From Escherichia coli (lineage in GTDB: Bacteria; Pseudomonadota; Gammaproteobacteria; Enterobacterales; Enterobacteriaceae), in assembly GCF_029227855.1 (NCBI RefSeq), contig NZ_CP074356.1: DNA of 64,000 bases; one strand, written 5' to 3'. The translations under genes were made by a program, and so were the position numbers. This document shows positions 63,165-64,000 of this stretch, piece after piece. Below the pieces are notes generated by a model that made no database searches, was not told the origin of the DNA, and saw nothing but the letters and a program-made list of their open reading frames with translations. The stretch's first letter is position 1, and each line of letters opens with the position of its first letter.

Positions 63165-63515
63165 TTAATGCGCGGAAAGAGGCAACTTATATTGTAAATG
63201 ACTCCTAAAGTCTTCCCCATCTTGCGCCTGAGGTATATATCTCTGAATTGCTTTTTGGTCAGCCGCCGCAAAACAAGAAAGTAATAAGATCTCAATGCTT
63301 TTGTCATTAATATAAGCGAAGATCATTCTTGCAAATTCGTATATAAACGCCCGATCCTGAGCGCTTAATAGTTTAATACAATATTTATTTTTAAGAGAAT
63401 AAAGTATTTCAAGGAAAGCATCCGCAGCAACCTTCACGTTATTCCCGGCGCTCATATTATATCTCCCTTGCACAGATAGAGTACAGAGATAGTAAACAGC
63501 CATACAAATAATCAT
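63165..63515 (-). CDS. Hypothetical protein in AT-rich accessory DNA (possibly the C-terminal continuation of the upstream pentapeptide-repeat gene after a frameshift)
   Basis: 116-aa ORF (or 96 aa from the internal Met at 63455) in low-GC sequence; overlaps the preceding ORF in a different frame. Confidence 0.35.
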   Translation of the reverse strand: MIICMAVYYLCTLSVQGRYNMSAGNNVKVAADAFLEILYSLKNKYCIKLLSAQDRAFIYEFARMIFAYINDKSIEILLLSCFAAADQKAIQRYIPQAQDGEDFRSHLQYKLPLSAH

Positions 63516-64000
63516 TTATTAACTCTTTTGTCCATTTTACTGGCAACCATGGTTTTATCTTGACACCATGCATACTACAGTCATGAAAAAGACATTTGCT
63601 GAAATTAACTCTTATCATATCAACATTAAAAAAATGGCAATTAATAAATTTTAAAGAATGAGTATTCACATTGTTAATTTTAACAGTTCTAAACGAAACG
63701 TTTTTGAATACATTGTTTACTATATTGCTATTTGTTATTTTAACATCACCTAAACTGCCGTTTTCAAAACAACATTTTTTCAATATGCTTTCATTCACAA
63801 CAGTGTGTGATAAATAGAGATTACTTATGTTTTGCTTTATTAATGCCACGTCATTAAAATGACTATATTTAATAAAGCAACCATCATTGAGTAGTGTTTT
63901 AAGATTGACTAAATTAGTTGCATCTTCACGTACCATCGTGGCAACTGGAACAGGCAACGACATGAAAACTTCTTCATTCACCATCAAGTGGATCATGCAT
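63457..64000 (-). CDS. Pentapeptide-repeat protein, 5'-truncated by the window edge (possible type III effector-like protein)
   Basis: Translation shows a clear 5-residue periodicity over about 15 turns (CFENG SLGDV KITNS NIVNN VFKNV SFRTV KINNV ... LFHDC SMHGV) with a hydrophobic second position; low-GC DNA; the ORF reaches the window end so the N-terminus is missing. Confidence 0.55.
   Translation of the reverse strand, partial: CMIHLMVNEEVFMSLPVPVATMVREDATNLVNLKTLLNDGCFIKYSHFNDVALIKQNISNLYLSHTVVNESILKKCCFENGSLGDVKITNSNIVNNVFKNVSFRTVKINNVNTHSLKFINCHFFNVDMIRVNFSKCLFHDCSMHGVKIKPWLPVKWTKELINDYLYGCLLSLYSICAREI

Follow-up and report, generated by a model that had tools for sequence, protein, structure and literature searches.

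Two overlapping minus-strand open reading frames in different frames, at the right-hand end of the 64,000-nucleotide stretch of Escherichia coli DNA analysed here (the window), raise the question of whether a single gene has been broken by a frameshift or whether two genes form a tightly coupled module. Both alternatives were offered in a preliminary description of this DNA. We conclude, with a probability of roughly 0.92, that the two ORFs are the halves of one pentapeptide-repeat gene, and that its splitting is a recent event within a small lineage of E. coli. The importance of this is mainly for annotation: a single pseudogene, and not two genes, should be entered at this locus. The gene family itself is an orphan found only in Escherichia and Shigella, under purifying selection yet repeatedly inactivated.

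Two overlapping ORFs at the edge of the window

ORF calling in the window returned a 179-aa frame at 63457..63996 (-), hereafter ORF1, and a 116-aa frame at 63165..63515 (-), hereafter ORF2. The two overlap by 59 nt (63457–63515) and, with (63996 − 63515) mod 3 = 1, they are read in different frames, such that the arrangement originally described is confirmed by the ORF listing. Its AT-rich setting is equally evident, the GC content being 0.338 (33.8%) for the last kilobase (63001–64000) versus about 0.51 (51%) elsewhere in the window. The stop at 63457, the ORF2 start at 63515 and the internal ATG at 63455 all stand as first reported, whereas the ORF1 start at 63996 does not: it is an artefact of the window edge, being the first ATG that falls inside it. 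What the window contains (63457..64000 (-)) is the 3′ portion of ORF1, ending at a premature TAA (63459–63457) and open past the window end. NZ_AP045174.1 has identical DNA here, and in it the frame extends 936–969 nt further upstream to an ATG or a GTG, at virtual window positions 64932 and 64965, giving a product of 491 aa (ATG) or 502 aa (GTG), and the 5′ two-thirds of the gene lie outside the window. The pentapeptide repeats attributed to the upstream ORF were recovered with both relevant profiles above their gathering scores (PF13599, 39.3 bits versus a cut-off of 38; PF00805, 25 versus 20.2). The matches cover residues 40–146 of the 179-aa fragment (63559..63879 (-)), a region predicted to fold as a right-handed beta-helix.

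ORF2 consists of two parts of different origin. Its first 20 codons (63456..63515 (-)) are the 3′ end of ORF1 read out of frame and are not ancestral coding sequence; when translations are compared, nothing in the intact protein corresponds to their peptide, MIICMAVYYLCTLSVQGRYN. The remainder (63165..63455 (-)) comprises 96 codons plus a stop, equivalent to intact residues 494–589 and to a predicted helical C-terminal domain. This part begins with the ATG inside ORF2 (63455–63453 (-)), located 1 nt past the ORF1 stop (TAAtATG).

The same DNA encodes one protein in other strains

E. coli 042 carries an uninterrupted ORF over the same DNA (NC_017626.1, 1018216–1020018), encoding 600 aa from a GTG or 589 aa from an ATG, which is colinear with ORF1 plus ORF2. 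Both ORFs of the window align end to end with the 600-aa form of this single full-length homologue, and it is this colinearity, together with a net difference of −2 nt at the junction, that supports the first of the two alternatives, a single gene inactivated by a frameshift. The best 120 homologous proteins listed are all 576–603 aa in length, and one cluster at 90% identity (P0001) holds 6177 member sequences, partial and truncated entries included. Intact alleles, among them cluster P0001 and the 042 ORF, are annotated 'pentapeptide repeat-containing protein'. Two candidate starts lie at virtual positions 64930–64981: a GTG, which a 4-nt spacer separates from an upstream GAGGAG, and, 33 nt downstream, an ATG with GGGGGA ahead of it and a spacer of 8 nt. 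Both are in use in the databases.

The counterpart of our locus in strain JNEC-KY178, AC0J0T_RS15960, is identical to it in the island DNA within the window, in the lesion and in coordinates. PGAP annotates it on NZ_AP045174.1 as one CDS, 'pentapeptide repeat-containing protein', 'frameshifted', equivalent to window 64932..63165. The pseudogene is therefore already known, in that RefSeq flags the identical sequence as frameshifted.

The second alternative, a native coupled module made up of a pentapeptide protein and a small partner, has next to no likelihood in our estimation. It would account for overlapping or abutting ORFs with a good ribosome binding site in the window, and the original annotation of O157:H7 Sakai does list a separate 96-aa ORF, ECs_0950. 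All other alleles examined nevertheless have a single in-frame ORF at the junction, and the Sakai split results from a different lesion 280 nt upstream, leaving a downstream ORF of 151 aa that crosses the junction in frame. Homologues that always occur as separate genes had been named as the observation that would overturn the single-gene reading; the opposite is seen, every other genome among the matches listed being in the in-frame state, and the homologue survey refutes a native module.

A net 2-nt loss at 63463–63465

The lesion lies at 63463..63465 (-), within a short (TA)n run, where intact alleles read GGGATATATATAATATG and the window reads GGGAGATATAATATG. In the alignment this TAT>G change combines a T>G substitution at 63463 with a gap of 2 nt that falls between 63465 and 63464. 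A single-base indel near 63457–63515 had been anticipated; we found instead a net 2-nt loss within that interval. In a pairwise DNA alignment with E. coli 042 (042, GCAAGGGATATATATAATATG; window, GCAAGGGAGATATAATATG) it is the sole frame-changing difference, and it is also seen in a three-way alignment with Sakai. The junction is GGGA[TAT]ATATAA in the intact 042 allele and GGGA[G]ATATAA in the window, which changes Asp490 to Glu, places the TAA at 63459–63457 in frame two codons on, and removes Tyr492 and Asn493. Across the junction the 042 protein reads ...SICARDIYNMSAGNNVKV... (in a longer stretch, ...LYSICARDIYNMSAGNNVKVAADAF...). In the window ORF1 ends ...LYSICAREI followed by the stop, and ORF2 reads ...(GRYN)MSAGNNVKVAADAF..., its ancestral part beginning ...MSAGNNVKV.... 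Beyond TAT>G, neither ORF contains a further lesion in the window allele. Intermediates carrying the substitution only or the deletion only had no exact match in 1027 complete genomes; a two-step origin was rejected on this basis, a single complex event being the simpler explanation.

The product of the ancestral gene is 589 aa long, or 600 aa if translation begins at the upstream GTG, and comprises an N-terminal region of ~340 aa, a predicted pentapeptide beta-helix (~residues 350–465) and a predicted helical C-terminal region of ~120 aa. In the window TAT>G, a small replacement that costs the (TA)n run a net 2 nt, produces Asp490Glu and brings the TAA into frame, so that translation ends after residue 491 and the last 96 codons persist as an ORF in the +1 frame. 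We infer that the truncated product lacks the function of the intact protein, and any separately made 96-aa piece would be without the N-terminal part. The locus is, very probably, an ordinary frameshift pseudogene private to its lineage.

The split state is rare and recurs in independent assemblies

An 86-nt query across the junction found the site in 1027 complete genomes. Among the matches listed, JNEC-KY178 is the only one aligned gap-free, and thus in the −2 state; all other listed rows span 88 nt and are in frame. In a megablast search with 62900–64000, JNEC-KY178 (NZ_AP045174.1) is 100% identical and the next-best match is 97.7% identical. Over the first 50 kb the window differs from this genome by 3 mismatches and 1 gap, and 59900–64000 is 100% identical, the differences in the 50 kb indicating that the window was assembled separately, from a very close relative or from the same clone, and is not NZ_AP045174.1 itself. 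The exact 502-aa ORF1 product is present on 5 Logan contigs and the exact 96-aa product on 6. Logan contigs from SRR10254033, SRR14933787 and SRR14933781 contain an identical junction string, with genes for the 502-aa and 96-aa products one base apart.

Simple-repeat indels are a common error in long-read assemblies, and the TA-rich, low-complexity nature of the site raises the suspicion of a sequencing or assembly artefact. However, the junction is shared by the window, the complete JNEC-KY178 sequence and no fewer than three SRA runs assembled independently, and the same products and junction in several assemblies make an error unlikely. The change, moreover, is a substitution plus a deletion, unlike a simple homopolymer slip, and the flanking 50 kb contains no other CDS annotated as frameshifted (0 among the 40 features of the window counterpart). 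Judged from these assemblies, an artefact at the junction is very unlikely, with odds that we would place close to nil.

Could the C-terminal piece still be made?

Upstream of the ATG at 63455, at a distance of about 6–7 nt, lies a Shine–Dalgarno-like AAGGGAG (63463..63469 (-)), itself strengthened by the T>G of the lesion. The calculated anti-SD duplex is −8.4 kcal/mol with a spacer of 6 in the window and −5.1 kcal/mol with a spacer of 9 in the 042 allele (AAGGGAT to AAGGGAG). With a stronger SD and a stop 1 nt before the ATG, reinitiation could yield the 96-aa piece, and the C-terminal piece might on these sequence features still be translated. A more far-reaching version holds that the gene is split yet working: TAT>G would have created a stop, an SD and a start within 15 nt, allowing termination–reinitiation and reassembly of the protein from two chains. 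The 1-nt distance between the ORF1 TAA and the ORF2 ATG and the gain in anti-SD pairing (with the spacer shortened to 6 nt) are in its favour, as are the loss of two residues only, the position of the break at the end of a predicted helix just before a loop (in a medium-confidence model), and the freedom of both pieces from further lesions. Against this, the allele is found in one complete genome among the matches listed (from 1027) and in a handful of runs, a rarity to be expected if the event was recent and either neutral or deleterious; that the allele is confined to one clone points to a recent, unselected change. The SD gain can also be a by-product of the mutation, and secretion via the N-terminus, if it occurs, would leave the 96-aa piece behind. 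We therefore consider a working split improbable. Were both pieces made and able to associate, this would be a natural gene fission caught within a clone, in an Escherichia-restricted protein that is possibly a secreted effector with an EspX1-like tail.

A further way to rescue the frame would be programmed +1 frameshifting of the prfB type (AGGGAG then stop), restoring the full-length protein. ORF2 is indeed in the +1 frame and an SD-like element lies directly 5′ of AUA-UAA. The shift site, however, is absent from all other alleles compared; since this stop/SD configuration occurs in no other allele, it is not a conserved recoding signal. In addition, a P-site AUA is unable to re-pair on UAU in the +1 frame, and the spacing between SD and shift codon is 0 nt, compared with 3 nt in prfB. 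The missing conservation and the failure to re-pair led us to reject recoding of this type, which has hardly any prospect of being correct.

Constraint on the intact gene and its inactivation in other lineages

A comparison of the 042 allele with that of Sakai gives a dN/dS of 0.14 for the gene as a whole, with 0.06 for the repeats and 0.04 for the C-terminal region. These low values indicate that the entire frame, including the part which is ORF2 here, evolved as constrained protein-coding sequence. Taken together, the sequence comparisons show a lesion that is derived, rare and real in a gene whose full-length frame was under purifying selection. The C-terminal tail of the window allele (RSHLQYKLPLSAH) carries non-synonymous differences that are common to intact alleles such as P0043, P0067 and P0095. 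These reflect mosaicism among alleles and not decay, and a period of decay after the frameshift was dismissed as their source.

In O157:H7 Sakai the gene is broken by a single additional AAATAAC, a 7-nt unit of the repeat region, about 280 nt upstream of the junction. The window has this site as AAATAAC AAATAGC (63727..63740 (-)), and the tandem array (locus positions 14912–14946 in Sakai) is expanded in O157:H7 and not in the window. The split leaves ECs_0949, of 413 aa, and a remnant ORF that was annotated as ECs_0950, of 96 aa. Sakai and the window thus share a split gene at the ybjP–ybjQ site and a 96-aa remnant from the same ATG, but they differ in the lesion, and the 63463–65 junction is intact in Sakai. 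A literature search found no mention of ECs0949; the single hit for ECs0950 is a study on TiO2 nanoparticles and phage (PMC11301168).

A sample of 60 genomes across the range contained a gene of intact length in roughly 50. O157 gene lengths in this sample are 1800, 1807, 1814 and 1821 nt. The 7-nt unit behaves in O157:H7 as a variable tandem repeat whose copy number switches the reading frame, which is lost in Sakai and kept in many other O157 strains. Other strains in the sample carry IS2 and IS5 insertions, a 1-nt deletion or a large deletion. To judge from these alleles, independent inactivation has occurred in several lineages, through the 7-nt repeat, through IS2 and IS5 and through small indels. 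This combination of selection and repeated inactivation is what one would predict for an accessory factor tied to a niche or for one that interacts with the host.

Automatic annotation often cuts the gene at residue 413, which makes annotation-based surveys of its presence or absence unreliable. The intact 600-aa ORF of 042 (extract 2036–3838), for instance, is called by PGAP as a pseudogene 'missing C-terminus' that ends at residue 413. This is the position of the Sakai stop, and the C-terminal third goes unannotated in most genomes. The truncation at residue 413 looks like an annotation artefact spread from a truncated reference protein.

An orphan protein with a pentapeptide-repeat core

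Matches to known-family profiles are confined to the repeat region, and the full-length 042 protein falls just below the same two cut-offs that the window fragment exceeds (PF13599, 35 versus 38; PF00805, 20.0 versus 20.2). An exhaustive phmmer search of 1.84 billion representative proteins (E <= 0.001) returned one full-length cluster together with fragments, all other matches being to the repeats only. On this evidence the regions on either side of the repeats, ~340 aa at the N-terminus and ~120 aa at the C-terminus, are orphan sequence, found only in Escherichia and Shigella.

An AF2 model of the full 589 aa is unusable (mean pLDDT 41.5). Modelling the last 250 aa alone gave medium confidence (pLDDT 59.8, pTM 0.58) and a predicted beta-helix of stacked short strands (pLDDT 70–77) followed by about six helices; the break in the window allele would fall where the first long helix ends, before a loop. 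In a Foldseek search of the PDB with the C-terminal model the lead matches are SopA, SV2, HalA and NleL, all of them pentapeptide helices and none at E <= 0.001. SopA and NleL chains are among these top matches, and the TM-scores are 0.26–0.39. As the matches are non-significant, we claim no function on the basis of fold. Our leading guess is that the intact protein is a host-directed secreted protein. One database record labels allele P0067 as a 'putative type III effector'.

Relationship to characterised pentapeptide-repeat proteins

The T3SS effector-like protein EspX1 of Sakai (ECs_0025) resembles the intact protein in layout, with an N-terminal region, pentapeptide repeats and a short helical tail, and is likewise encoded on an AT-rich chromosomal islet. 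BLASTP detects a similarity that extends from the repeats into the sequence after them (E = 0.002, 22% identity over 109 aa; PWLPVKWTKELINDYL versus IMPGRWTTQLVNKHL), including the shared stretch P-x-(K/R)-W-T-x-x-L-(I/V)-N-x-x-L. By hhalign the relationship is not significant (probability 3.6%, E = 0.012), and the N-terminal regions are unrelated. EspX2 gave no BLASTP match, and neither Pfam nor NCBIfam contains a curated EspX1 model. The gene is not filed as EspX, since EspX2 is unrelated and EspX1 is weakly similar by BLASTP and not by hhalign.

PipB and PipB2, effectors of Salmonella SPI-2, have their repeats in the C-terminal half, are encoded on AT-rich islets, and need a short C-terminal tail for activity. 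In PipB2 the activity is carried by the part downstream of the beta-helix. Neither protein was matched in any of our similarity searches.

In SopA, NleL (EspX7) and EspX2 a beta-helix of pentapeptide repeats is followed by a helical region, as is predicted for the protein described here. All three are effectors that combine the beta-helix with a HECT-like E3 ligase, and in both NleL/EspX7 and SopA the activity sits in the part after the beta-helix (PMC3013003). By analogy, a stop at residue 491 would probably remove or cripple the functional end of the protein. The SopA_C/HECT-like domain itself (PF13979/NF011904) has no match in the protein at E <= 1, and EspX2, used as a control, matches PF13979 at 2.6e-15. 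Similarity to the Qnr/MfpA DNA mimics is slight (NF033086, 9.8 bits versus 240 required). A role as a defence system was also considered and rejected: the profile for HalA of Hailong (NF051894) scores 24 bits over 53 repeat residues, far below its cut-off of 250, and PADLOC returned 0 families.

The surrounding island

The window is chromosomal DNA, and the gene order at the locus is ybjT, ybjS, amiD (61804–62634), ybjQ (62631–62954) and the AT-rich segment, followed by ybjP and artP outside the window. The AT-rich segment is an insertion of ~2.55 kb between ybjP and ybjQ, with the pseudogene as its only gene and its right part within the window; the ybjP–ybjQ spacer of K-12 is 125 nt. Among 5426 complete genomes of E. 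coli, about 1100 (about 20%) have the insertion, always as a single copy and always on the chromosome. Scans for promoters and terminators gave sites no more frequent than in shuffled sequence. The spacer between the pseudogene stop and ybjQ (62955..63164 (-)), with the island/core boundary near 63000, is highly divergent from both 042 and Sakai. At ~63050–63200, which covers the last ~40 nt of the gene plus spacer, there are about 22 differences per 150 nt relative to 042, compared with a divergence of about 1% over the remainder of the gene, and the tail of the protein belongs with another class of alleles. This pattern of divergence suggests a recombination mosaic at the right edge of the island.

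A few other features of the window were noted in passing. In the 50 kb compared, the window differs from NZ_AP045174.1 at these positions only: two substitutions and a 1-nt indel lie at 6635–6689, in the ycaL–aroA spacer, and one substitution lies at 33049, in the lrp–trxB intergenic spacer (between features 32374..32868 and 33413..34378). An IS200C transposase gene (39971–40429 (-), from the JNEC-KY178 annotation) is situated between tRNA-Ser (39492–39579) and clpA. Finally, a 111-nt fragment next to ycaM (16613–16723 (+)) is called by PGAP as a pseudogene, a hypothetical protein without its N-terminus.
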